Of a stretch of 64,000 nucleotides of DNA, positions 1,414 to 13,151 are shown piece after piece. The stretch is from assembly GCA_031416315.1 (NCBI GenBank), contig JANOTL010000153.1, forward strand, positions 1 through 64,000. Direction: 5' to 3'. Below the pieces are notes generated by a model, which searched no databases, was not told where the DNA came from, and saw only the letters and a list, made by a program, of their open reading frames with translations. This stretch comes from Pseudomonadota bacterium. Lineage in GTDB: Bacteria; Bdellovibrionota_B; Oligoflexia; Oligoflexales; CAIYRB01. Every line of letters starts with the position of its first letter. The stretch's first letter is position 1. The translations under genes and the position numbers were made by a program.

Positions 1414-3423
1414 ATGTGCGGGATTTTTGGCATTAGTGTTTGCAAATCCGAGAAATCCGACGCGCGGGGTGTCGGTCACATCGTCGACGCGCTCTTCGTC
1501 CTTTCTGAGTCGCGCGGAAAGGAAGCCGCGGGCATCGCCGTCGATTCGGGGCGCAATCTTCGCGTTTTCAAGGAGGCCGTTCCGGCCTCTACGATGATCA
1601 GGTCGCGGGAATACAAGGAATTCTTCGCCGAGGCTTCGGCCTGGCCTGATGATCCAAAGCGCAACCTTGCGGTCATCGGGCATTCGCGCCTCGTCACCAA
1701 CGGCAATTCCGGCATTAGCGACAACAACCAGCCGGTCGTCTCCGGCGGAATCGTCGGCGTCCACAACGGTATTATCGTCAACGACGCCGAGTTGTGGAAG
1801 GCGCATGCCAATTTGAAGCGAAGCTCCGATGTCGACACGGAAGTGCTCCTCGCAATCGTGCGCGAAAAGATCACTTCGGGCACGAACGTTTCGAACGCGG
1901 TCGCCCAAGGATTCGACGAGATCGACGGCGCTGCCTCGGTCGCCCTCCTCTTCGGCGACTACGACGTGCTGCTACTCGCGACGAACAACGGCTCCCATTA
2001 CTATGTCTACGACGATGCGAGCAAGGCCCTGGTCTTCAGCTCTGAGCGACTCATCCTCGAATCCCTCTTCAAACGCGTCAAATCCGTTCGCGACCTTTTC
2101 GCCGACGCAACGATCCGCCAGCTGCGCCCCAACATGGCCTTGATCCAGGACCTCCGTACGGGCTCGATTTCTAGCTTCTCACTCACGGACGAGTCGAGCC
2201 GCCAGGTAGCGATTGCACCCGCGTCTCGCGCGACGATTCGCTCCATCCGCGACGAGTCGGCGAACTCCGAAATCGCTCGCGCCTCGATGCGACGCTGCAC
2301 GGTCTGCATCCTGCCGGAAACTTTTCCGTTCCTGGAGTTCGACGCCAAGGGCGTTTGCTCGCTTTGCCGGACGTACCAAAAAGTCGCGCCACTTGGTCGC
2401 GCGGCTTTGGACGCGCGCGTTGCTCCGCACCGCCGTTCGGACGACCGCCCGGATTGCCTCGTCTCGATCAGCGGCGGCCGAGACAGTTCCTACGGCCTTC
2501 ATTACGTCAAGGAAGAGCTGAAGATGAACCCCGTAGCGTACACCTACGACTGGGGACTCGTCACAGATTTGGCCCGACGCAACATATCGCGCCTATGTGG
2601 GCGCCTCGGCGTCGAGCACATCTTGATCTCCGCCGACATTCGACACAAGCGATCGAACGTCCGCCGCAACATCAATGCATGGCTCAAGCGCCCGGCTCTA
2701 GGAATGATCCCTCTGTTCATGGCGGGGGACAAACAATACTTCTTCCACGGTCACGACCTCGCCAAGAAGACGGGCGCGGACCTAGTCTTCTTCTTCCCGA
2801 ATCGCTTGGAGCGCACGAACTTCAAGTCGGGATTCTGCGGCGTCGACGAAGGCAGCAAATGGTTCTTCAAGATCTCGCTCGCCGAGAAGGCGACGCTCGC
2901 CGCGTATTTTGGCGGTCAAATCCTAAAAAACCCCGCGTTCTTGAACCGCTCTCTCGTCGACACGATTCACGCCTTCTATTCAACTTACTTTCTCCCGAAC
3001 GATCGACTTCTCTTCATGTTCGACTACGTCCCCTGGGACGAAGCGACGATCATGGGGACTTTGCGCCAACACTACGACTGGGAGGCTGCTGCCGACACCG
3101 AATCCACATGGCGCATCGGCGATGGAACCGCCTCGTTCTACAACTACATTTACTACACCGCCGCCGGCTTCACCGAGCACGACACGTTTCGCAGCAATCA
3201 AATTCGTGAAGGGATCATCACGCGCGAGCGCGGCCTGGAGCTGGCGTTGAGAGAGAACCGCCCACGCTTCGATTCGATTCGGCAGTACTCTCAGATCATC
3301 GGCTTCGACTTCGACCATGCCTTGCAGGTCATCAACGCGATGCCAAAGCTCTACATGCGAGAGAACAGGACGCGAACGCTTGTTGCGGCGACCTCAAGCA
3401 GTTCGCAGCTCGAAGCGTTCTAA
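1414..3423 (+). CDS. Class II glutamine amidotransferase domain fused to an N-acetyl-sugar amidotransferase (WbpG/PseA-like PP-loop ATPase)
   Basis: N-terminal MCGIFG, GHSR, HNGII, DTE motifs; C-terminal CTVC..CSLC and PP-loop SGGRDSS. Confidence 0.8.
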   Translation: MCGIFGISVCKSEKSDARGVGHIVDALFVLSESRGKEAAGIAVDSGRNLRVFKEAVPASTMIRSREYKEFFAEASAWPDDPKRNLAVIGHSRLVTNGNSGISDNNQPVVSGGIVGVHNGIIVNDAELWKAHANLKRSSDVDTEVLLAIVREKITSGTNVSNAVAQGFDEIDGAASVALLFGDYDVLLLATNNGSHYYVYDDASKALVFSSERLILESLFKRVKSVRDLFADATIRQLRPNMALIQDLRTGSISSFSLTDESSRQVAIAPASRATIRSIRDESANSEIARASMRRCTVCILPETFPFLEFDAKGVCSLCRTYQKVAPLGRAALDARVAPHRRSDDRPDCLVSISGGRDSSYGLHYVKEELKMNPVAYTYDWGLVTDLARRNISRLCGRLGVEHILISADIRHKRSNVRRNINAWLKRPALGMIPLFMAGDKQYFFHGHDLAKKTGADLVFFFPNRLERTNFKSGFCGVDEGSKWFFKISLAEKATLAAYFGGQILKNPAFLNRSLVDTIHAFYSTYFLPNDRLLFMFDYVPWDEATIMGTLRQHYDWEAAADTESTWRIGDGTASFYNYIYYTAAGFTEHDTFRSNQIREGIITRERGLELALRENRPRFDSIRQYSQIIGFDFDHALQVINAMPKLYMRENRTRTLVAATSSSSQLEAF

Positions 3424-3450: not shown

Positions 3451-4719
3451 TCACGAACTGATTTCTCCGAAGAAACTGAAGCCGAGACACCGCTTCATGA
3501 TGAGCGAGAAATAGGCCACCGAGGCCAGCAGTGCCAACGCGGTCGCTACGGCAGCCCCGAGAATTCCTAGCGTCGGCACGAGCAGAAAGTTCAAGGCGAC
3601 GTTCGTTGCTAGGATCAGCACGGCTTGCGCGGTGAACCACCCTGGATGTCCGGAGTGGATAAGGACGCTGTCAAAAGGCACGGTACCCGAGACTGCGCAC
3701 ACGCCGCTCGCAAGAATCAGGAAAGTCATGGTGACCGTCGCATCGACGCCGAAGTCAGGCGCGAACGCGCCGACGCCGTATAGAAAGAGCGCGATGAGCG
3801 CCGCCAGGACGACAGTTCCCGTGTAGAGCATTCGCCATGACCGCCTTGCCATCGACCGTAAGGCGCCGTATTCGCAACCAGCGACGAGCTTGCCAACCTT
3901 CGGGCTGAAGACGTTCTTCGCGACGACGAGCGTCTGATAGAGTCCCTCAGCGAACGTCGACGCCAGGGAATACTGGCCAACCGCCGTATCCGACAAAAAC
4001 AACCCGATCACGAGAACGTCGACTCGGGTGTTTAGCTCCAGGAAGACGCCGCTCAGGAGTCCGCGAAATCCGAAATGAAGATGCTTCCGTCGCCATTCGA
4101 CCGCTTGAGCCGCGATCCGCAGGTCGACGAGGGGCCAGATCGACGCAATGCCTGCGATGAACACCAGCAGCTCGCCTCCGAGCAGGGCGGCGGGAAGCAT
4201 TTCCACCCGACCGATGCCGACGACATAGGCGATCGTCGCAAACATTCCGACATATCGGATGATTTGCAGGCCCGCGAAGAGGCGAAGCCGCGCTTGCCCG
4301 TTGATCGCCGCCATGATGGTCTTGTTCACGGAAAAGAGCAGCAAAGCGGGCGCGACGTATCGAAGCCCGTCCTCGACCATGGGGCTATCCAAGAGCCCTG
4401 CGATCACACCCTTTAGTAGCCAAACCAAGGCCGCTAGTGCCAAACCGAAACCAAGGCAAAGCGGCAGCGCTGCCGAAAAGGCTTCGCGCCGTTCTGCAGG
4501 GTCCTCTGTCTGAGCGACCGCTCTCAAAACCGACTGATGGACACCGCCAACAGCCAGCTGTCCACCAACGATAAAGACCGCTAGGACTTGGTTGAAAACC
4601 CCAAGCGCCTCACGGCCCATCATCCTCGATATGAGGAAGTTTAGAATTAAACCACTAGCACCAACTACGGCGAGACTCGCGTAGTTCCAGGCCAAATCTG
4701 TCTTTGCGCTCGATGTCAA
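3451..4719 (-). CDS. wzx: Oligosaccharide flippase (Wzx/MOP superfamily)
   Basis: Many TM segments; RVDVLVIGLFLSDTAVGQYSLA and NVALNFLLVPTLGILGAAVAT motifs. Confidence 0.85.
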   Translation of the reverse strand: MTSSAKTDLAWNYASLAVVGASGLILNFLISRMMGREALGVFNQVLAVFIVGGQLAVGGVHQSVLRAVAQTEDPAERREAFSAALPLCLGFGLALAALVWLLKGVIAGLLDSPMVEDGLRYVAPALLLFSVNKTIMAAINGQARLRLFAGLQIIRYVGMFATIAYVVGIGRVEMLPAALLGGELLVFIAGIASIWPLVDLRIAAQAVEWRRKHLHFGFRGLLSGVFLELNTRVDVLVIGLFLSDTAVGQYSLASTFAEGLYQTLVVAKNVFSPKVGKLVAGCEYGALRSMARRSWRMLYTGTVVLAALIALFLYGVGAFAPDFGVDATVTMTFLILASGVCAVSGTVPFDSVLIHSGHPGWFTAQAVLILATNVALNFLLVPTLGILGAAVATALALLASVAYFSLIMKRCLGFSFFGEISS

Positions 4720-4739: not shown

Positions 4740-4816
4740 TGGTAGGCCTGAGTGGACTCGAACCACCGACCTCTACCTTATCAGGGTAGCGCTCTAACCA
4801 CCTGAGCTACAGACCT
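4740..4816 (-). tRNA. tRNA-Ile(GAU)
   Basis: Reverse complement AGGTCTGTAGCTCAGGTGGTTAGAGCG-CTACC-CTGATAA-GGTAG-AGGTCGGTGGTTCGAGTCCACTCAGGCCTACCA; cloverleaf, anticodon GAT, encoded CCA. Confidence 0.97.
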
Positions 4817-4958: not shown

Positions 4959-5858
4959 ATGAACAACGCCGGAGACTCTCTCGACGCTCGTTTGGAGGTG
5001 ATTTCAGGGATTTCGAACGAGCAGTGGCTGTCGAATCTGAGTGACCGAAAGCGCAAGGAGCTGTCTTTCCACGATCGCGATCGTGACCGCGACAAGATCC
5101 AGACGCTCGATACGGACACTTACGAGAAGTTCTACGGCAATAAGAAGTACTACGGCGCCACTGGCGACTCGCGCTCCTATGTCGATCAGTGGATCGCCAC
5201 CAATGCGAAGGGCAAAGTCTTCCTCGACTATGCCTGCGGCAATGGCGCTCGCGCGATCTTCGCGGCGAAAGCCGGCGCTCGTATGGTCATCGGCCTCGAC
5301 ATCAGCTCAGTCTCAGTGGAGAACGCCCGACGCGACGCCGAAGCCGCGGGCGTCAGCGCGAACTGCCGCTTTATCCAGGCCGACGCCGAGAACACGCTCC
5401 TTCCGGCCGATTCGATCGACACGATCCTCTGCTCGGGCATGCTCCACCACCTGGACCTGTCCTTCGCGCTCCCCGAGCTGCGCCGCATCCTCGCTCCGGG
5501 CGGCCGCATCCTCGCTGTCGAGGCTCTCGACTACAATCCGGCGATCAAGATGTATCGCTACATGACGCCTGCCATGCGCACGGACTGGGAAAAAGCCCAC
5601 ATCCTGAGCTTGAAAGACCTGACCTTCGCGAGCCGCTTCTTCGACGTTCGCTCGGTGAACTACTGGCACATCACGTCGATCCTGTCGCCGCACCTGCCGT
5701 TCCTAGCCAAAACCTTCCAGACCCTCGATCGACTGCTGACCAAGGTCCCGCTCGTGAAGTTGATGGCTTGGATGTTCACATTTGAAATGGTGAAGACGAC
5801 GACCGAGAAAGCCTTGGAGCTGCCGGCCGCACCGAAGGCGCCTTCGCTGCCTCACTGA
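4959..5858 (+). CDS. Class I SAM-dependent methyltransferase
   Basis: FLDYACGNG motif I, GLDIS, LHHL, LRRILAPGGR. Confidence 0.9.
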   Translation: MNNAGDSLDARLEVISGISNEQWLSNLSDRKRKELSFHDRDRDRDKIQTLDTDTYEKFYGNKKYYGATGDSRSYVDQWIATNAKGKVFLDYACGNGARAIFAAKAGARMVIGLDISSVSVENARRDAEAAGVSANCRFIQADAENTLLPADSIDTILCSGMLHHLDLSFALPELRRILAPGGRILAVEALDYNPAIKMYRYMTPAMRTDWEKAHILSLKDLTFASRFFDVRSVNYWHITSILSPHLPFLAKTFQTLDRLLTKVPLVKLMAWMFTFEMVKTTTEKALELPAAPKAPSLPH

Positions 5859-5877: not shown

Positions 5878-6051
5878 TTGAAACACGAGGGCCCGGAAGA
5901 CATTAGAGCGTTCTCGGCCGATCCACTGGCCGTCGGCTACTTCTTCGGAGCCCTCGCTCAGGCTCTGTTCTGCGCTTTGGTCATCGCTGCGATCGTAGCC
6001 GCAGTGTTCCTCGACGTCGAGGCCCGGCCCTTTCGCTATATGGGATTCTAG
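5878..6051 (+). CDS. DltX-like microprotein (57 aa, one TM helix, C-terminal Tyr motif FRYMGF); absent from the ORF track
   Basis: TTG start; MKHEGPEDIRAFSADPLAVGYFFGALAQALFCALVIAAIVAAVFLDVEARPFRYMGF*; fills the gap and ends 4 nt before the ligase ATG. Confidence 0.8.
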   Translation: MKHEGPEDIRAFSADPLAVGYFFGALAQALFCALVIAAIVAAVFLDVEARPFRYMGF

Positions 6052-6055
6052 TCCT

Positions 6056-7552
6056 ATGGAAACGAATCCATTCGAGTGGTTGGAATCGATCGCCGCTGCC
6101 GACCCCGACCGCACCTTGCTCGATCTGGATTCCGGCCGCGTCTCGTATCGAGCCTTTTCGCTTCTTTCGCACGCGCTCGCGAATTCCTTGAGTGCCAAGG
6201 GCGTAGGTCGCGGCGACGCCGTTCCGATCTTCTCCGGCCGCTATGACACCGTTTTAGCTGGAATGTTCGCCTCTTGGCGTCTAGGTGCGACCGCGCTGCC
6301 GATGAACCTGACGCTGACTGGCGCCGCGCGCGCAGCCGTACTGAAGGCCACTCGCTCGGCCGTAGCTCTGGCCGACCTCGAGCTTGCTCCTCGGCTCGGG
6401 ACCGACCACCCTGAGATTCGCGTGGTCGAGCCTTGCGACGTGCCCGCGAATGCTGCGACGAGCTCGAGCCTCGACCTGAACGTCCTGGATGTCGACTGCT
6501 TCTTGAACTTCACCTCCGGCACGACGGGCGTGCCGAAAGGCGTGAGGCTTTCGCCGCGAAAGATCGCCGCGAATGGCGCTGCCGCGGCGCAGTTTCTCGG
6601 CTTGAAGGAAGATACGAGGCTCTTCGTCAACTCGCCGCCCTTCTACATGAGCGGCATCATCCACTTCCTGACGGCTCTGTCCGTCGGCGGCGCGATCATC
6701 AGCCGCCAAGGCTTCTACTTCGGCGCCGACCTTCTGCGCATCCTCGCCGAGACGCGAGCGACGGGCTTCGGCGGCGCCCCGGTGCACCTCAACCGCGTCA
6801 TCGCCGAGCCTTCCGCGCCGAGCGCCGCGCTCTTAAAGGGCCTGTCGTTCTGGATGAGCTCTGGCGATGCGCTGCCAACCGCTAACATCCGCTCTTTCAA
6901 TGCGATGTTCCCCGCCGTTCGGGTCGTCGTCATGTACGGCTTGACCGAGCTGGCGGGGCGGATCTGCGCCATCGACTTGGGCGCTGATCCCGCGGGGATC
7001 GGGTCGGTCGGGAGGCCCCTGCCGAACATGAAAGTATCGATTCTCGATCCGTCGGGACGCGCATGCCGCGTCGAAGAGACGGGCGAGATCCATGTCGAAA
7101 GCCCGTTGCGCATGTCCGGCTACCTCGGGGCCACGGCTTCAGCACCGTCACCGGAAAGCCCCGCCGCCTTTCCGACGGGAGATTTCGGTCACGTCGACGA
7201 AGCCGGGCGGATCTGGCTCGAGGGGCGTCGAGATGACATCTTCAAGTCGGGCGGCGAAAAAGTTAGCCTCCAACTCGTTCGCACCGCGCTGTCCGAATGC
7301 GGCGAGTTCGCGGATTTCGAGGCGATCGCCCTGCCACATGAAGTCATGGGCCACGTGCCGGCGGCAGCCGTCGTGCCAAAGAACCCGTCGACGTTCGAGC
7401 CGCGGCTGAGCTTGCGCATGCTACGATCGAAATTGCCCGCATCTCACGTTCCGAAGAGCCTCAAAGTCGTCGAAAGCGTCCCGCGCACGGGCAGCGGCAA
7501 GGTCCTTCGCTCGGCCGTGTTGGAAATGTTCAAACAGGAGGCTTGCCATTGA
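6056..7552 (+). CDS. Class I adenylate-forming enzyme (acyl/aminoacyl-AMP ligase, DltA-like role)
   Basis: FTSGTTGVPKG, YGLTE, TGDFG, PRTGSGK motifs. Confidence 0.9.
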   Translation: METNPFEWLESIAAADPDRTLLDLDSGRVSYRAFSLLSHALANSLSAKGVGRGDAVPIFSGRYDTVLAGMFASWRLGATALPMNLTLTGAARAAVLKATRSAVALADLELAPRLGTDHPEIRVVEPCDVPANAATSSSLDLNVLDVDCFLNFTSGTTGVPKGVRLSPRKIAANGAAAAQFLGLKEDTRLFVNSPPFYMSGIIHFLTALSVGGAIISRQGFYFGADLLRILAETRATGFGGAPVHLNRVIAEPSAPSAALLKGLSFWMSSGDALPTANIRSFNAMFPAVRVVVMYGLTELAGRICAIDLGADPAGIGSVGRPLPNMKVSILDPSGRACRVEETGEIHVESPLRMSGYLGATASAPSPESPAAFPTGDFGHVDEAGRIWLEGRRDDIFKSGGEKVSLQLVRTALSECGEFADFEAIALPHEVMGHVPAAAVVPKNPSTFEPRLSLRMLRSKLPASHVPKSLKVVESVPRTGSGKVLRSAVLEMFKQEACH

Positions 7553-8991
7553 AAGTCCTAGCACTGGGCGGCAGCGTCCGAGCCGTCAACCCTCGGTCGA
7601 GCGACGCGCTTATGCGCCACATCGCGAAGACTTCCTCCATCGCCGAATTCGCCGAAGCCGTTCGCGCGGACAACGCCGCGCTGGCGGAGCGCGGCATCAC
7701 TCGTCCGATCTTGAGCAACTCCGAGATTCTCTCCGGGATCGCACTCATCGGCGCTAAGGGCCAAGGTGCGTCGGTCGACTACTTTCCCCTCGCCCGCCTC
7801 TTCAACCGCCTGGAAACTCCCGTGCTCCCGGTCAGCGCGAGCGAGCTCGGCCTGGACGACGAGGCCGCTTACGTCGACACGCTGTCGATCAACCCCGCGA
7901 AGCGGGCGCTACTCCTGGAGAAGATCGCGGCGGCGGACGCGATCATCTTGTCGTCGCCGATTTACTTCGGCGATCGCTCGTCGGTCAGCAATAAGGTGCT
8001 GCAAATCGCCCAGGCGGAAGGAAGCCTCAAAGGCAAGCTGGTCGCGACCTTGAGCGTCGGCGCCAAGCGCAACGGCGGTCAAGAAACCACGAACATCTTC
8101 ACCCTGAACGAAGTCGTTCACATGGGCGGGATGATCGTCGGCAACGGGCCGTCGAGCTGCCAGTACGGAGGGACCGCGATCGCGGGCGACGCCGGGACGA
8201 TCCTGAAGGACGAGTGGGGGATGGAGACCGCCTTCGCCACAGGTAAACGCGTCGCGCAAGCAGCCTCCGTCTTGACCACGGCCATCGACCCGAGTCACGA
8301 GACCGCTCCGATCGAAATCATGGCGATCGTGACCATGGACATGCCGCAACGGATCCTTGCCGAGACTTTACGCGCGCATCAGCAAAGCTTGCTGCAAGCG
8401 GGTCATCGCGTGAATCTCTCCGTCGTACAGCTGATCGACGGATACATCGAGCGCTGCCTGGCCTGCAACATTTGCCCGATTCCCGAGCTGATGAAGTCGC
8501 CGAAAGACTACGGCTGCATCATCCAATCGGGTCGCGACATCATGAAGGACGTTCGGGAACAGATGCTCGCCAGCGACGGCATCATCATCGCCGGACTCAA
8601 CCTTCGCGACATGCGCAACGTCGTCTATCGGTATCAAGCGTTCACGGAGCGCACGCGATTCATCCGGCGCAACGACTTCGAGCTGACCAACGTTCCACTG
8701 ACGTCATTTACTCTGGAAGAGGTCGGCGGCGCCGGGAACGACATCTTCGGTCTCAAGGTCATGACGTCATACATTCGCCACAACACGATCGTCTGCCCGC
8801 CGATTTCGGAGATTCTCCACGAGGGTCAAACGATCAAGTCTGCCCTCCCCGAAATGGAGGCCTTCGTGCGCACCGCCGGCGCGATTGCCGCGAAGCGTCG
8901 GGCCGCGGCGCGTTACGCCGTCAGCTACAAAGCCGGCGGCCACGGCGGCTACTCGGACACGCGTCTCGATTCGACGGAGGCGATGCGTTGA
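7549..8991 (+). CDS. Tandem flavodoxin-fold protein (NADPH-dependent FMN reductase / iron-sulfur flavoprotein-like)
   Basis: Domain 1 ADAIILSSPIYFG...RNGGQETT; domain 2 CLACNIC...C; TTGA overlap with AGGAGG RBS. Confidence 0.75.
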   Translation: MKVLALGGSVRAVNPRSSDALMRHIAKTSSIAEFAEAVRADNAALAERGITRPILSNSEILSGIALIGAKGQGASVDYFPLARLFNRLETPVLPVSASELGLDDEAAYVDTLSINPAKRALLLEKIAAADAIILSSPIYFGDRSSVSNKVLQIAQAEGSLKGKLVATLSVGAKRNGGQETTNIFTLNEVVHMGGMIVGNGPSSCQYGGTAIAGDAGTILKDEWGMETAFATGKRVAQAASVLTTAIDPSHETAPIEIMAIVTMDMPQRILAETLRAHQQSLLQAGHRVNLSVVQLIDGYIERCLACNICPIPELMKSPKDYGCIIQSGRDIMKDVREQMLASDGIIIAGLNLRDMRNVVYRYQAFTERTRFIRRNDFELTNVPLTSFTLEEVGGAGNDIFGLKVMTSYIRHNTIVCPPISEILHEGQTIKSALPEMEAFVRTAGAIAAKRRAAARYAVSYKAGGHGGYSDTRLDSTEAMR

Positions 8992-9260
8992 ACAACGCGA
9001 CTGGAGAGGCCGCCATCTCGGCTGTGCTTCTGGATTTCATCCGCGTCGACCTCGTCGATGGCCCGCAAGAAATCGACGCCGAGACCGCGCTCTTCAGTAG
9101 CCGCGTCCTCGACTCCATCAAATTGCTCGACCTAGTCAATTTCATGGAGTCGGAGTTCCGCATGAAAGTGCGCCCGATGGAGATCGTCATGGAAAACTTC
9201 GACTCGGTCGCTCGCATTTGCGGTTACGTCCGACGCACCCAAGAAAGGGGCCAGACATAG
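8988..9260 (+). CDS. Acyl carrier protein (DltC-like, 90 aa)
   Basis: C-terminal part of ORF 8472..9260; VLDSIKLLDLV phosphopantetheine Ser motif, ENFDSV; TTGA overlap with GGAGG RBS. Confidence 0.88.
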   Translation: MNNATGEAAISAVLLDFIRVDLVDGPQEIDAETALFSSRVLDSIKLLDLVNFMESEFRMKVRPMEIVMENFDSVARICGYVRRTQERGQT

Positions 9261-10336
9261 CGGAGTTTGTCGCGGCGCGGCGCTTCGTTGCGGGTTTAGC
9301 AGCCGGCTGGAAGGCCAAAAGTGGGCGCCAGCTCTTCTTGAATGCCCTCGCTTCGCTGGTCGTGCTGGTTGGAATCGAATTCGCGGCGCGGCACCAAGCC
9401 TATTGCTTGCTTCCGGAGGCGATGCTTAGGTATAGCGCTGGCGACGACTACACGTCTGCCGCGTGCAAGGTCTTCCGCGCGCGTCGAGTAAAGGCGCGGG
9501 AGTCTTGTGTCTACGTCCTCGGCGGCTCGGCGATCCGCGAGCTGACCGCCGACGATGCCGCGCTCAGCCGTGCGATTTCTTCCGCCTCGGGGACGAACAG
9601 CCGCGTGTGGAACCTCGCGTCGTCGTCGCAGACCTTGGGCGGCAGCCTTTCGCTCCTCGAGCGCGTGCCGACGTGCGGCCGAGAGCTCTTCGTCGTCGGA
9701 GTCTCGGTTGGCCGCATGGCTTCGCCGCTGAGTGACTTCGAGGCCGAAGTTCTGGGCAATCGAGCTCCTGGAGTCGCGAAAATCTCCTATGACTTCGTCG
9801 CGTCTCGCCTAGATGTCCCGTTCTTTGCCCGTTTCGACGCGTTCGCCGCGACGATGCTGGCGAGGAGGGCCTTCAAGACACACTTGCTTACGAACGCAGG
9901 CGCGGCCGACCGGGGCTACATTCAGCACGTCTACGACACGATGGGAAAACCGACTGAGGCCCTCATAGCCGAGATACGGGCGCGAATCCCGCCCGAATTG
10001 GTGGATGGATATCGCGCGAATCACGTCGCCAATTCCGTCTTCCTCGACTGGCTCGTGGAAGCGGCGCGGCGGCGCGGCGCTGAACTGGCGTTCCTCGAGC
10101 AACCGACGAATCCCCTTTACCACGAGATGATTCGAACGGAGGATGATCGCCACGGGGAGACCATGACGTCGCGCGCGCATGCGGCGGGGGTCCCTTATCT
10201 GCGACTCGAGACCGAAAGCCTTAGTCCGGACGACTTCTACGATCTTTCGCACGTTTTCGAGAGCGGCCGGGCCAAGGTTCAGCCGCTTTTGGTCAACGCG
10301 CTTGCGGCCCTGATCCGCAAAGAGCGCGACCGGTGA
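9218..10336 (+). CDS. Membrane-anchored SGNH/DltD-AlgJ-like acyltransferase (true start may be ATA at 9257)
   Basis: N-terminal TM helix, block I VLGGSA, C-terminal DFYDLSH (DxxH). Confidence 0.7.
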   Translation: MRLRPTHPRKGPDIAEFVAARRFVAGLAAGWKAKSGRQLFLNALASLVVLVGIEFAARHQAYCLLPEAMLRYSAGDDYTSAACKVFRARRVKARESCVYVLGGSAIRELTADDAALSRAISSASGTNSRVWNLASSSQTLGGSLSLLERVPTCGRELFVVGVSVGRMASPLSDFEAEVLGNRAPGVAKISYDFVASRLDVPFFARFDAFAATMLARRAFKTHLLTNAGAADRGYIQHVYDTMGKPTEALIAEIRARIPPELVDGYRANHVANSVFLDWLVEAARRRGAELAFLEQPTNPLYHEMIRTEDDRHGETMTSRAHAAGVPYLRLETESLSPDDFYDLSHVFESGRAKVQPLLVNALAALIRKERDR

Positions 10337-11586
10337 CGGATTTCATCCTCGGCTGGAAGGGCCTCGCGTTCTGGATCGTGATCTTCGCCTGCCGGTGGGC
10401 GCCCCCCCATCGGCGAGAATTTCCATCGGCGCGAATCGCGATCCTCTCCTGCGCGTACGTCGCGTGGTTCGAGCCCGCCTTCACGCTCTTTTGTGCCGTG
10501 ATCGGCGCGATCCTTTGGTTGTTGCGACCGACCGGGGTTCGCCTTTTGTTTTCGCTGGTCGTGCTCCTAGCCGCATCTTTCGCCCTAAAGTATGGAGCAT
10601 GGACGTCGTCCGCTGCCGCGAGCATCGGGATCGCCATTCCAAGCTATGCGATGCCGATCGGGACCAGCTATTTCGTGTTTCGCATGACCTTGTTCATCTT
10701 CGATCGCTACCGCGGCCTCATCCCGCCGGATGGGCGGGAGGGCCGCTGGGCTTTCGCGAACTACGTGTTCTTCGTCCCCGCGTGGGCCGCGGGTCCGATT
10801 GATTCCTTCAACAATCGGATGCAACAGCTTGCATCCGCGTTCGACCCGCATCTGGTCGCAGCTGGGATTCAGCGCGTATTCTGGGGAGTCTTCAAGAAGA
10901 TCGTCATCGTCGAGGGCCTCGCGGCCGTGATGTTCGGACAGATCCTCACGCGCGTCGCCGACGGCCAAACGGATTTGAGCACCCTGCCGTCTTTAGCTCC
11001 TGCCGCATTCGTCGTCTTGGCGTTCGTGGTCGCGTATCTGGATTTGTCCGCATACACCGACATCGCGATCGGGACGGCATTGACGCTTGGAATCCGCTTG
11101 CCTGAGAACTTCCAGCGTCCTTTCGCGCAAAGAAACATCTCTGAGTTCTGGCGAAGCTGGCACATCAGCCTTTCGGCGTGGTGTCGCAGCGTCGTGTACT
11201 TCCCGGTCTTCGGATTCACGAAACGCCCGGTCATCGCGATGTACGCGACAATGCTCACCATGGGGCTGTGGCACGACTTCGGCTGGAACTGGCTAGTCTG
11301 GGGTTGCTATCACGGCAGCGCCTTGGCCCTGTACGCCGTCTGGGATCGATTCAAGCGCCGTCGCCCCTCCCTACGACGTCTCTTCGATTCGCCTCCCGTT
11401 CGCGTCGGCGGCATGATCTCGACCTTCCTGTTCGTCGCGCTTGGATATGCCTTCGTCGCGACGAAGTCGATCGACCGAGCATTCGAGGTCTTTAGGGCCG
11501 CGCCTGTGGGGGTCGTCGAATGCGTTAAGTCCTCGACGTGCAGTTTAGGCGCGCTGCGTCCCAGCCGGTTTCCTGCCGCTCCCTGA
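10333..11586 (+). CDS. MBOAT family O-acyltransferase (DltB/AlgI-like)
   Basis: AGPI, YTDIAIG, PENFQRPF, EFWRSWHISLS, GLWH...WGCYHG motifs. Confidence 0.93.
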   Translation: MTDFILGWKGLAFWIVIFACRWAPPHRREFPSARIAILSCAYVAWFEPAFTLFCAVIGAILWLLRPTGVRLLFSLVVLLAASFALKYGAWTSSAAASIGIAIPSYAMPIGTSYFVFRMTLFIFDRYRGLIPPDGREGRWAFANYVFFVPAWAAGPIDSFNNRMQQLASAFDPHLVAAGIQRVFWGVFKKIVIVEGLAAVMFGQILTRVADGQTDLSTLPSLAPAAFVVLAFVVAYLDLSAYTDIAIGTALTLGIRLPENFQRPFAQRNISEFWRSWHISLSAWCRSVVYFPVFGFTKRPVIAMYATMLTMGLWHDFGWNWLVWGCYHGSALALYAVWDRFKRRRPSLRRLFDSPPVRVGGMISTFLFVALGYAFVATKSIDRAFEVFRAAPVGVVECVKSSTCSLGALRPSRFPAAP

Positions 11587-11770
11587 CGAAAAACAAGGCC
11601 GCCCGAGCCTCACCTATGCGGGTAAGCGCTGCTCGTGCGGCCTTGGAAGATCCTACCCATCCTGTCTCTCGCTACACAGAGGGGAAAGCACCCGACCGCG
11701 GGGAAAGAGGACTGAGACGAGACAGGAATTCTTAAATTAACTGGTGAGACCCGAGAGTCCCGAATCGGGA

Positions 11771-12025
11771 CTATGCGTCTGCTAGAACCGGCAGGCCAAG
11801 CTCCAGACGGTACTGCTTCAACTTACGCTGGAGCGTCCGGATACCAATGCCGAGCACGCGCGCCGCGCGGGTCCGGTTGAAGTTCTGGCGTTTGAGGGTC
11901 TCGAGGATGACCGCCTTCTCAATCTCGGAGAGGGTCAAACCTTGCTCAAACTTGACCTGCGTCTCGAGCGTCTTGGCCGTCTTGCTAAGGACCGCATCGT
12001 GTGCGGCGATACTGGACATCATCAT
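11771..12025 (-). CDS. Small Fis-family HTH protein
   Basis: TLSEIEKAVILETL..FNRTRAARVLGIGIRTLQRKLKQY. Confidence 0.88.
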   Translation of the reverse strand: MMMSSIAAHDAVLSKTAKTLETQVKFEQGLTLSEIEKAVILETLKRQNFNRTRAARVLGIGIRTLQRKLKQYRLELGLPVLADA

Positions 12026-12064
12026 TTTTGACTCCTCCTCCCTTTCGGGTCTCGGGGTCTCTAT

Positions 12065-12080
12065 AGCAATTGAGGTGCCA
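12065..12080 (-). promoter_or_regulatory. sigma54 -24/-12 promoter of the Fis-like gene, with an IHF-like site at 12097-12109
   Basis: TGGCAC-CTCAA-TTGCT on the minus strand. Confidence 0.8.
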
Positions 12081-12269
12081 GCTCGTTACTTCGTCTTTTC
12101 AGTAACTTAACGTTCTCATCTTCTTGCGACCGGTATCGAAACTAAACCGGCTCCCCGCCAGAGTGGTACGAAAAAAGACGACCGCCTCGCACCAGGATCA
12201 GCTTGGGCGAAGGCGGCCGTTGACGAGAGAGACACATGAGCTCGGTAGTGGGCTGTGTCAGAGAAGACC

Positions 12270-13151
12270 TTAGCGGAGGAGAGCCAAGGCGGCTTCCGGC
12301 GCTTGGTTCGCCTGCGAGAGGACGGAGATGCCGGCCTGCTGCAGGATCTTGTTCTGGGTGAACTGGGCCGTCTCGTCGGCGAAGTCGACGTCACGGATGC
12401 GGCTGTTGGCGGACTTCATGTTCTCGATTTGGACGCCGAGGTTGTTCACGGTCGAGCCAAGGCGGCTTTGCTGCGCGCCGATGTAGGCGCGGTTCGAGCT
12501 GATCGAGAGGATCGCCTTGTCGATGACGGTCAGCTTCTCGGCCGCGGTCGAGCGGCTAAAGTCGTCGCCCGGGTTTTCGGGGCCGATCTCGGCGCCTTTG
12601 CCGAGGCCCATCTCCTCGATGTTGACCTTCAGGCTATCGATGCCGATCTGGATCGTGTCGGTGTTCTCGACCGAGCCGTCGCCAGCGCCGACATGGATGG
12701 TGAACAAGCCTTCGGCGCCGGCGGCTTCTTGGCCCTGCAGGAGCGGGGTCGAGTTCCACTCCGTGGTGTTCGCGATGCGCTGCACCTCGTTGACGAGCTG
12801 CACGTACTCACGGTTCGTGAACTCGCGCTCGGTGTTGCCGATCGTGTCGGACGCGGCCTGCGTCGCGAGCTCGCGAAGCCGAACGAGGATGTTCCCGACC
12901 TCGTTCATGCTGCCTTCCGCCGTCTGGACGAGCGAGATGCCGTCCTGGGCGTTGCGTTTGGCCTGGCTCAGAGAGCCCATCTTCGCCTTCATCCCTTCGG
13001 AGATGGCGAGGCCGGCGGCGTCATCGGCGGATTTATTGATGCGATAGCCGCTCGACAGTTTCGCCATGTTCTCGCCCATGGAGGCGGTGGAGTTGGCGAG
13101 GTTACGCTGCGCGTTCACCGAGGCAGTGTTGGTTCTGATCCGAAGGCCCAT
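12270..13151 (-). CDS. fliC: Flagellin
   Basis: LSSGYRINKSADDAAGLAIS N-terminus; SRIRDVDFA...QAN C-terminus. Confidence 0.97.
   Translation of the reverse strand: MGLRIRTNTASVNAQRNLANSTASMGENMAKLSSGYRINKSADDAAGLAISEGMKAKMGSLSQAKRNAQDGISLVQTAEGSMNEVGNILVRLRELATQAASDTIGNTEREFTNREYVQLVNEVQRIANTTEWNSTPLLQGQEAAGAEGLFTIHVGAGDGSVENTDTIQIGIDSLKVNIEEMGLGKGAEIGPENPGDDFSRSTAAEKLTVIDKAILSISSNRAYIGAQQSRLGSTVNNLGVQIENMKSANSRIRDVDFADETAQFTQNKILQQAGISVLSQANQAPEAALALLR

Follow-up and report, generated by a model that had tools for sequence, protein, structure and literature searches.

In the window, the 64,000-nucleotide stretch of DNA analyzed here, the gap before a ligase gene holds a small open reading frame whose product is probably a DltX-like acyl shuttle, one of a conserved one-helix family, that would be supplied in trans to an MBOAT lacking a C-terminal tail of its own. 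The gene (5878..6051, + strand) runs from a TTG start to a TAG stop and encodes 57 amino acids with one predicted hydrophobic helix and the C-terminal sequence FRYMGF. The codons of its F-x-Y-x-x-F tail (F52-R-Y54-M-G-F57) lie at 6031..6048 (+), and Tyr54, encoded at 6037-6039 (+), is predicted from the accessible part of PMC12148441 to be the acyl acceptor. According to that part, DltX has a six-residue F-x-Y-x-x-F motif, the Tyr of which receives the acyl group in a relay of His, Tyr, and Ser. A sequence-only reading of this DNA had drawn attention to the frame, its hydrophobic helix, and its FRYMGF ending, all of which we found as stated, and its background on the motif in DltX and in AlgI/PatA-type MBOATs agrees with what is accessible of PMC12148441.

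The frame begins 19 nt past the stop of a SAM methyltransferase gene (4959..5858, +) that heads the gene run and ends 4 nt ahead of the ATG of the ligase gene (at 6056), so that it occupies 174 of the 197 nt between the two. Its best 21-residue hydrophobic window comprises residues 25 to 45, its 19-residue hydropathy maximum is 2.77, and an acidic N-terminal stretch precedes the helix; G24 and Q28 are common to many relatives. The GC content at codon positions 1, 2, and 3 (0.67, 0.42, and 0.72) is close to that of the neighboring genes, whose third positions lie at 0.75 to 0.81, and this is the sole coding signal that comes from the window's own copy. The true start of the gene is unsure because the TTG codon is preceded only by a GTGGGG run, a weak ribosome site. 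We found no sigma-70 promoter-like site between positions 4700 and 12300 of the window and no Pfam or NCBIfam family that the frame matches.

That a short frame which starts with TTG and belongs to no Pfam or NCBIfam family is merely a chance opening in an intergenic gap is almost certainly wrong. It is refuted by the rarity of the tail, by a control with 59 alternative patterns, by the presence of the gene at 73 of 78 loci, by a test on the Tyr, and by 332 profile matches. In the 6.36-Mb host genome, only 8 of 191,694 stop-ended six-frame segments end in F-x-Y-x-x-F, namely, four MBOAT tails, the microprotein frame, one DUF5989-like microprotein, and two unrelated segments. Furthermore, a profile made from 67 relatives, with the window microprotein itself left out, and run on 103,396 segments of the genome ranked the window microprotein first with an E value of 3.4e-6, the runner-up having an E value of 5.1. 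When the six tail columns were removed from the profile, the microprotein still came first but not significantly (E 0.98), showing that most of the profile signal resides in the tail. The microprotein frame is confirmed as real, far beyond chance.

A word-indexed search with the 57-residue microprotein returned no candidates, and we therefore approached the family via the neighborhood of the MBOAT gene. An alignment of 27 MBOATs was used to fetch 160 loci, comprising the best 80 of 587 genome stretches and the best 80 of 573 metagenome stretches, and 78 of these loci were well flanked, having ≥6 kb of sequence upstream and ≥1 kb downstream. A small gene was scored if it was a separate frame on the same strand with a hydrophobic helix and the strict tail F-x-Y-x-x-F. 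The sequence-only reading had named a conserved small frame at homologous loci as a check; such a gene was present at 91 of these best 160 loci overall and at 61 of the 78 well-flanked loci, and the number rose to 73 of the 78 when the tail was relaxed to [FLM]-x-Y-x-x-[FLY]. As a control, two Phe and one Tyr were placed within the last six residues in the 59 remaining ways; these patterns gave 0 loci on the small-gene strand and, on the opposite strand, 0.12 on average. At the same 78 well-flanked loci, the ligase was matched 72 times, the carrier 64 times, the SGNH protein 63 times, and the flavoprotein 48 times, and the small gene occurred together with ligase, carrier, and SGNH matches at 55. 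The five misses consist of L157, which has fused tails, L149, which has a variant ending FRYMKI, and three loci (L061, L072, and L079) where we found no small gene beside a tail-less MBOAT.

The place of the small gene varies, lying 1.5 to 6.5 kb upstream of the MBOAT end at 52 of the 73 loci, just upstream of the MBOAT at 8, just downstream at 12, and further down at 1. The 66 genome loci that carry it (among the best 80 of 587) represent 12 named groups, and because 45 of the 66 are from Actinomycetota, the locus counts are not independent. All of the genome loci used come from metagenome-assembled genomes. A full profile scan for the family yielded 332 proteins with an E value of ≤0.001; the best 150 of these 332 are 29 to 103 residues long, all have Tyr fourth from the end, and 107 have the strict tail. 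Seven loci (L068, L075, L078, L141, L153, L154, and L160) form a sister group in which the small gene directly follows the MBOAT gene and in which two ligase genes are often present. Their tails end in Leu or Tyr (e.g., FRYMDL and FRYARY), and the terminal Phe is therefore not strict. L021 and L121 have two microprotein genes each. Several Thermoleophilia loci (L004, L015, L026, and others) pair, in each cassette, a single MBOAT and a single microprotein with two to five SGNH paralogues, which suggests that one shuttle serves several acceptors.

Since the members were picked by their motif, the invariance of the Tyr in the family alignment and in the profile matches is partly circular, and patterns that leave the Tyr position free provide the noncircular test. 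With position 3 left free, Tyr was found in 78 of 78 distinct helix-bearing F....F tails, and 92 of the 93 tails that fit a second Tyr-free pattern have it as well. Among 59 distinct FRYVGF genes, in which the tail is spelled in 18 different ways in the DNA, base differences at codon positions 1, 2, and 3 numbered 15,323, 8,587, and 24,592, which is a coding signature for the family. We preferred these unfiltered counts to the pN/pS comparison (0.095/0.40), which comes from only 910 pairs at ≥75% identity and is biased low.

These tails bear on the idea that the microprotein is a scaffold or assembly subunit for the MBOAT and the SGNH protein, with a Tyr that binds its partners and carries no acyl group. 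The accessible parts of two papers lend this some substance, one also describing DltX as binding both partners (PMC12148441) and the other describing binding of the DltX tail to DltD (PMC13653941). However, the Tyr sits invariably where DltX and PatA have their acylated Tyr, with no swap to Phe in any of the 78 tails, and the MBOAT itself lacks a tail that could accept the acyl group. We consider a pure scaffold unlikely and the shuttle the better account.

The partner MBOAT (10333..11586, +) is 417 amino acids long, matches PF03062 at 84.8 bits, and has a catalytic residue, His314, that is invariant in the 27 aligned MBOATs. Its sequence ends in RFPAAP and has no C-terminal motif, as the sequence-only reading had noted. 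No tail is present in any of the 30 best MBOAT matches, the window's own included. In a set of 120 matches, the 56 with a tail have a median length of 480 residues and the 64 without have a median of 413.5. Of the five MBOATs in the host genome, only that of the operon lacks a fused tail. As controls, we took ten loci with fused-tail MBOATs, four from the host genome and six of 146 plasmid matches, and found a separate small gene or a carrier match at none of the ten. The Tyr tail is thus either fused to the MBOAT or carried on a separate gene, and at one locus (L002) a fused MBOAT is found together with a tail-less MBOAT that has its own small gene. The earlier proposal that the motif is supplied in trans gains support from the small gene at 73 of 78 tail-less loci, its absence at 10 of 10 fused loci, and the Tyr in 78 of 78 tails. 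One of the host's fused tails, that of the MBOAT at G000:C55:9477-11111 (+), is identical to the window microprotein in 8 of the last 14 residues, and the two have in common L-D-x-E-A-x-P-F-x-Y-x-x-F, which extends beyond the motif alone; this likeness may be due to chance or may reflect shared ancestry.

In a maximum-likelihood tree of 114 MBOATs, built quickly and left unrooted with SH-aLRT as the only support measure, the window MBOAT belongs to a group of 67 tail-less rows (support, 91), and a small gene was found for 50 of the 67. The window MBOAT sits on a long end branch (1.5), so that its exact place is unsure; the rows closest to it come from Actinomycetota, Bdellovibrionota, and one Christensenellaceae genome. 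Six DltB proteins form a separate branch (support, 100), apart from the window MBOAT; two regions fetched around below-cutoff DltX matches (L185 and L186) contain no MBOAT and contribute no rows. The 29 fused rows make up one side of a low-support branch (66) within a group of 34 (99), and the other five rows of this group are tail-less, a small gene accompanying two of them. Being unrooted, the tree gives no order for fusion versus splitting of the tail.

A further 130 genomes from the host's class, many of them incomplete, gave no sign of the cassette. The only other match to the family profile in the 131 class genomes (G035) lies inside a 571-residue frame and was rejected as a microprotein. 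The absence of the cassette from the 130 genomes suggests a patchy module, one that was probably acquired. GC content, considered as a possible mark of foreign DNA, does not set the cassette apart (0.57 to 0.64 in the 1- to 12-kb part of the window versus 0.59 to 0.69 in the 12- to 24-kb part). A tRNA-Ile(GAT) gene (4740-4816, −) between a flippase gene and the head of the cassette is a possible integration site. The charge distribution around the helix is atypical. In a count that used relatives trimmed to the last 48 residues or fewer, Lys and Arg were richer before the helix in 40 of 68 family members and richer after it in 4, one of which is the window microprotein, with one Lys/Arg before the helix and two after. 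As a result, a tail-out orientation of the microprotein is not supported by the positive-inside rule.

It might be argued from this charge distribution, from the TTG start with its weak ribosome site, from the word search that gave no close relative, and from the absence of the cassette in 130 other class genomes that the family is real but that the window copy is untranslated or decaying. Either case is very unlikely, however, as the helix, G24, Q28, and the tail are intact, the codon-position GC content is like that of the neighbors, and all five partner genes are open and have kept their catalytic residues. A functional shuttle gene remains the preferred reading.

The genes downstream of the microprotein gene mostly have overlapping stops and starts. 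The first, at 6056..7552 (+), encodes an AMP-forming ligase of the acyl-CoA-ligase type that is predicted to load the carrier and whose closest solved relatives are the acyl-CoA ligases FadD5, feruloyl-CoA synthetase, and MenE. In DltA, an Asp in the A4 motif binds the alpha-amino group of the substrate. Where six of six DltA proteins read APFSFDL, the window ligase reads PPFYMSG, and among its 67 close relatives the eight most frequent forms (64 rows) likewise have no Asp at the DltA Asp position. The cargo is, on sequence grounds, probably a carboxylic acid and not an alpha-amino acid. The next gene (7543..8991, +), between those of the ligase and the carrier, encodes a two-domain flavodoxin-fold (FMN_red) protein with a CxxCxxC motif, possibly a redox tailoring step. 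Full-length two-domain relatives of it occur at L052, L057, L121, and L122, with shorter forms at Thermoleophilia loci. The methyltransferase upstream is probably not a core part, since its relatives are weak (best E 2e-9) and occur at only 17 of the best 160 loci.

The acyl carrier protein gene (8988..9260, +) starts with a TTG codon that overlaps the flavoprotein stop. Its product matches PF00550 above the cutoff and scores 17.9 bits against the DltC model (cutoff, 68), and its Asp-Ser43 is invariant in 83 of 83 aligned sequences. The SGNH protein gene follows at 9218..10336 (+) and encodes 372 amino acids with an N-terminal hydrophobic helix and the residues S104, D342, and H345; in 60 aligned sequences, D342 and H345 are invariant and S104 is conserved in at least 90%. 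Its start codon is unsure. The first common start, TTG at 9218, would give a 43-nt overlap with the carrier gene, and an in-frame ATA at 9257, which overlaps the carrier TAG and follows a purine-rich run, is a possible rare start. Pfam gave no match for the window's own SGNH protein, and PDB sequence searches with the protein or its profile gave nothing significant; 42 of 60 relatives match Lipase_GDSL_2 and 2 of 60 match DltD. We modeled the protein with an alignment-based fold (pLDDT 83.8), discarding a single-sequence fold (pLDDT 34.3). The top Foldseek matches of the model are DltD (E 2.8e-4, TM 0.40). With VIA-align, DltD gave a Z score of 13.2 and an rmsd of 5.1 over 266 aligned residues, the longest alignment among the top rows but tied with other SGNH folds (Z 13 to 14).

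The same five-part layout, together with this closeness of the SGNH model to DltD and with DltB as the best NCBIfam match of the MBOAT (137 bits; cutoff, 375), could instead indicate a genuine Dlt system that has diverged strongly and decorates an envelope polymer of a Gram-negative cell with D-alanine or another alpha-amino acid, as in Dickeya; some Gram-negative bacteria do have dlt genes, according to the accessible parts of PMC5541007 and PMC3544676. We give this only a slim chance, because the ligase lacks the Asp of six of six DltA proteins and matches acyl-CoA ligases, the six DltB proteins form their own, fully supported branch away from the window MBOAT, and the DltX profile PF12459 is matched by none of 68 microproteins. 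On these three grounds D-alanine was rejected as the cargo. That the cargo is likely not D-alanine refines the DltX-like interpretation offered by the sequence-only reading.

Upstream of the cassette lie genes for a WbuX-like N-acetyl-sugar amidotransferase with a glutaminase domain (1414-3423), a Wzx-type flippase (3451-4719, opposite strand), and a hexapeptide acetyltransferase; the amidotransferase and flippase genes belong to a surface-glycan cluster that is truncated where the contig begins. In a scan of 57 chosen flank proteins, surface-glycan genes likewise flank L052, L057, and L122, and we found none at L031, L047, L054, L058, and L067. The host is a diderm, as LpxC and BamA score above their profile cutoffs, which makes teichoic acid an unlikely acceptor, but its genome does have one weak PF04464 match (24.6 bits).

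From the genes, their co-occurrence, and their conserved residues, all of which are observed, we infer the transfer steps, the helix orientation, the cargo, and the acceptor as follows. The ligase would adenylate a carboxylic acid, perhaps altered by the flavoprotein, and load it onto Ser43 of the carrier. The MBOAT, via His314, would then transfer the acyl group from the carrier to Tyr54 of the microprotein at the outer face of the inner membrane, and the tail would hand it from Tyr54 to Ser104 of the SGNH protein. Finally, the SGNH protein would esterify an envelope glycan, likely the product of the adjacent flippase and amidotransferase genes.

If this is true, the operon points to a new branch of envelope-acylation systems and to further acyl modifications of bacterial surfaces, although the surprise is limited by the fact that the acyl-shuttle chemistry itself is already known. 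As a tentative proposal, to which we give somewhat less than an even chance, there may be a third, widespread, carrier-fed class with a separate microprotein in at least a dozen bacterial groups, and not in Firmicutes alone, one that puts ligase-chosen and possibly flavoprotein-tailored non-amino-acid acyl groups on surface glycans; in this proposal, the separate form may be ancestral to the fused tail of PatA and AlgI, and carbamoyl groups may be a further cargo of the Tyr tail. The key part of such a system is easily overlooked because the gene is only about 45 to 90 codons long, and a simple annotation rule is to search for a small gene wherever an MBOAT is tail-less. The F-x-Y-x-x-F motif was reportedly defined by Schultz et al. 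in 2023 (Nat Microbiol 8:1318). We found no published description of the microprotein family in the open literature, a scope that does not include Schultz et al. 2023 and its supplements.

The comparison with known systems brings out both likenesses and differences. DUF5989 proteins (PF19451) are likewise small and hydrophobic, with an F-x-Y-x-x-F end, and the host genome has one, yet that copy follows a carbamoyltransferase gene and not an MBOAT gene. This second separate microprotein (L001:7789-7959, −, on contig G000:C137) ends in FVYSLF, scores 26.8 bits against the DUF5989 profile (cutoff, 27), and is encoded directly after the carbamoyltransferase gene (7977-9779), with an SGNH protein gene upstream (11104-12363) and no MBOAT found on the contig. 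Its Tyr tail may shuttle carbamoyl as well, and there may be a link to SxtK of saxitoxin clusters. Membership of the window microprotein in DUF5989 was rejected, as PF19451 is matched by 0 of 68 aligned microproteins.

The dlt genes of Dickeya and Pectobacterium likewise show a Dlt layout in an outer-membrane bacterium, according to the accessible parts of PMC5541007 and PMC3544676. DltX is placed in Firmicutes in what is accessible of the literature (PMC3783018, PMC5541007, PMC3544676, PMC13721041) and the shuttle is treated as a Gram-positive feature in the accessible part of PMC13653941. The dlt genes of Dickeya and Pectobacterium are annotated as encoding D-alanine enzymes, and the window ligase lacks the Asp of the six DltA proteins compared here.

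PatA/AlgI-type MBOAT-SGNH systems, of which the host genome has four MBOATs, have the same relay residues (MBOAT His, Tyr tail, and SGNH Ser). There, however, the tail is part of the MBOAT and sits on two additional helices, while here it is on a separate gene and the MBOAT is ~65 residues shorter. The cassette also has a carrier and a ligase. In its accessible part, PMC12148441 (2025), from the group that defined the Tyr-shuttle mechanism, states that MBOAT/SGNH pathways other than Dlt have neither a carrier nor a DltX-like microprotein, a generalization to which the operon and its dozens of relatives with a carrier, a microprotein, and a different ligase are an exception.

The closest parallel is with DltX, likewise a separate one-helix gene product ending in F-x-Y-x-x-F. 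The microprotein gene lies directly upstream of the ligase gene as dltX does of dltA, and the DltX partners are matched here by a ligase, a carrier, a tail-less MBOAT, and an SGNH protein of predicted DltD fold. The distance from the helix end to the Tyr is also alike, with a median of 9 in the microprotein family and 10 in five DltX proteins. In contrast, the tail is usually F-R-Y in the family and F-I-Y in DltX, the cassette has a ligase of the acyl-CoA type and an extra flavoprotein in a host with LpxC and BamA, and the match of the MBOAT to DltB (TIGR04091) stays far below the cutoff. None of the 68 microproteins matches PF12459 (E ≤ 0.05) or consistently matches any named NCBIfam family; the host genome gave no PF12459 match at an E value of ≤1, whereas B. 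subtilis and L. lactis, used as control genomes, do give matches. In a profile comparison with the five DltX proteins, only the helix and the tail align (probability, 41%; 24 columns). The earlier description of the microprotein as DltX-like therefore holds for its build, that is, helix, tail, and partners, and fails for membership in the DltX family, so that the best reading is of a protein that would work like DltX without being DltX by family.
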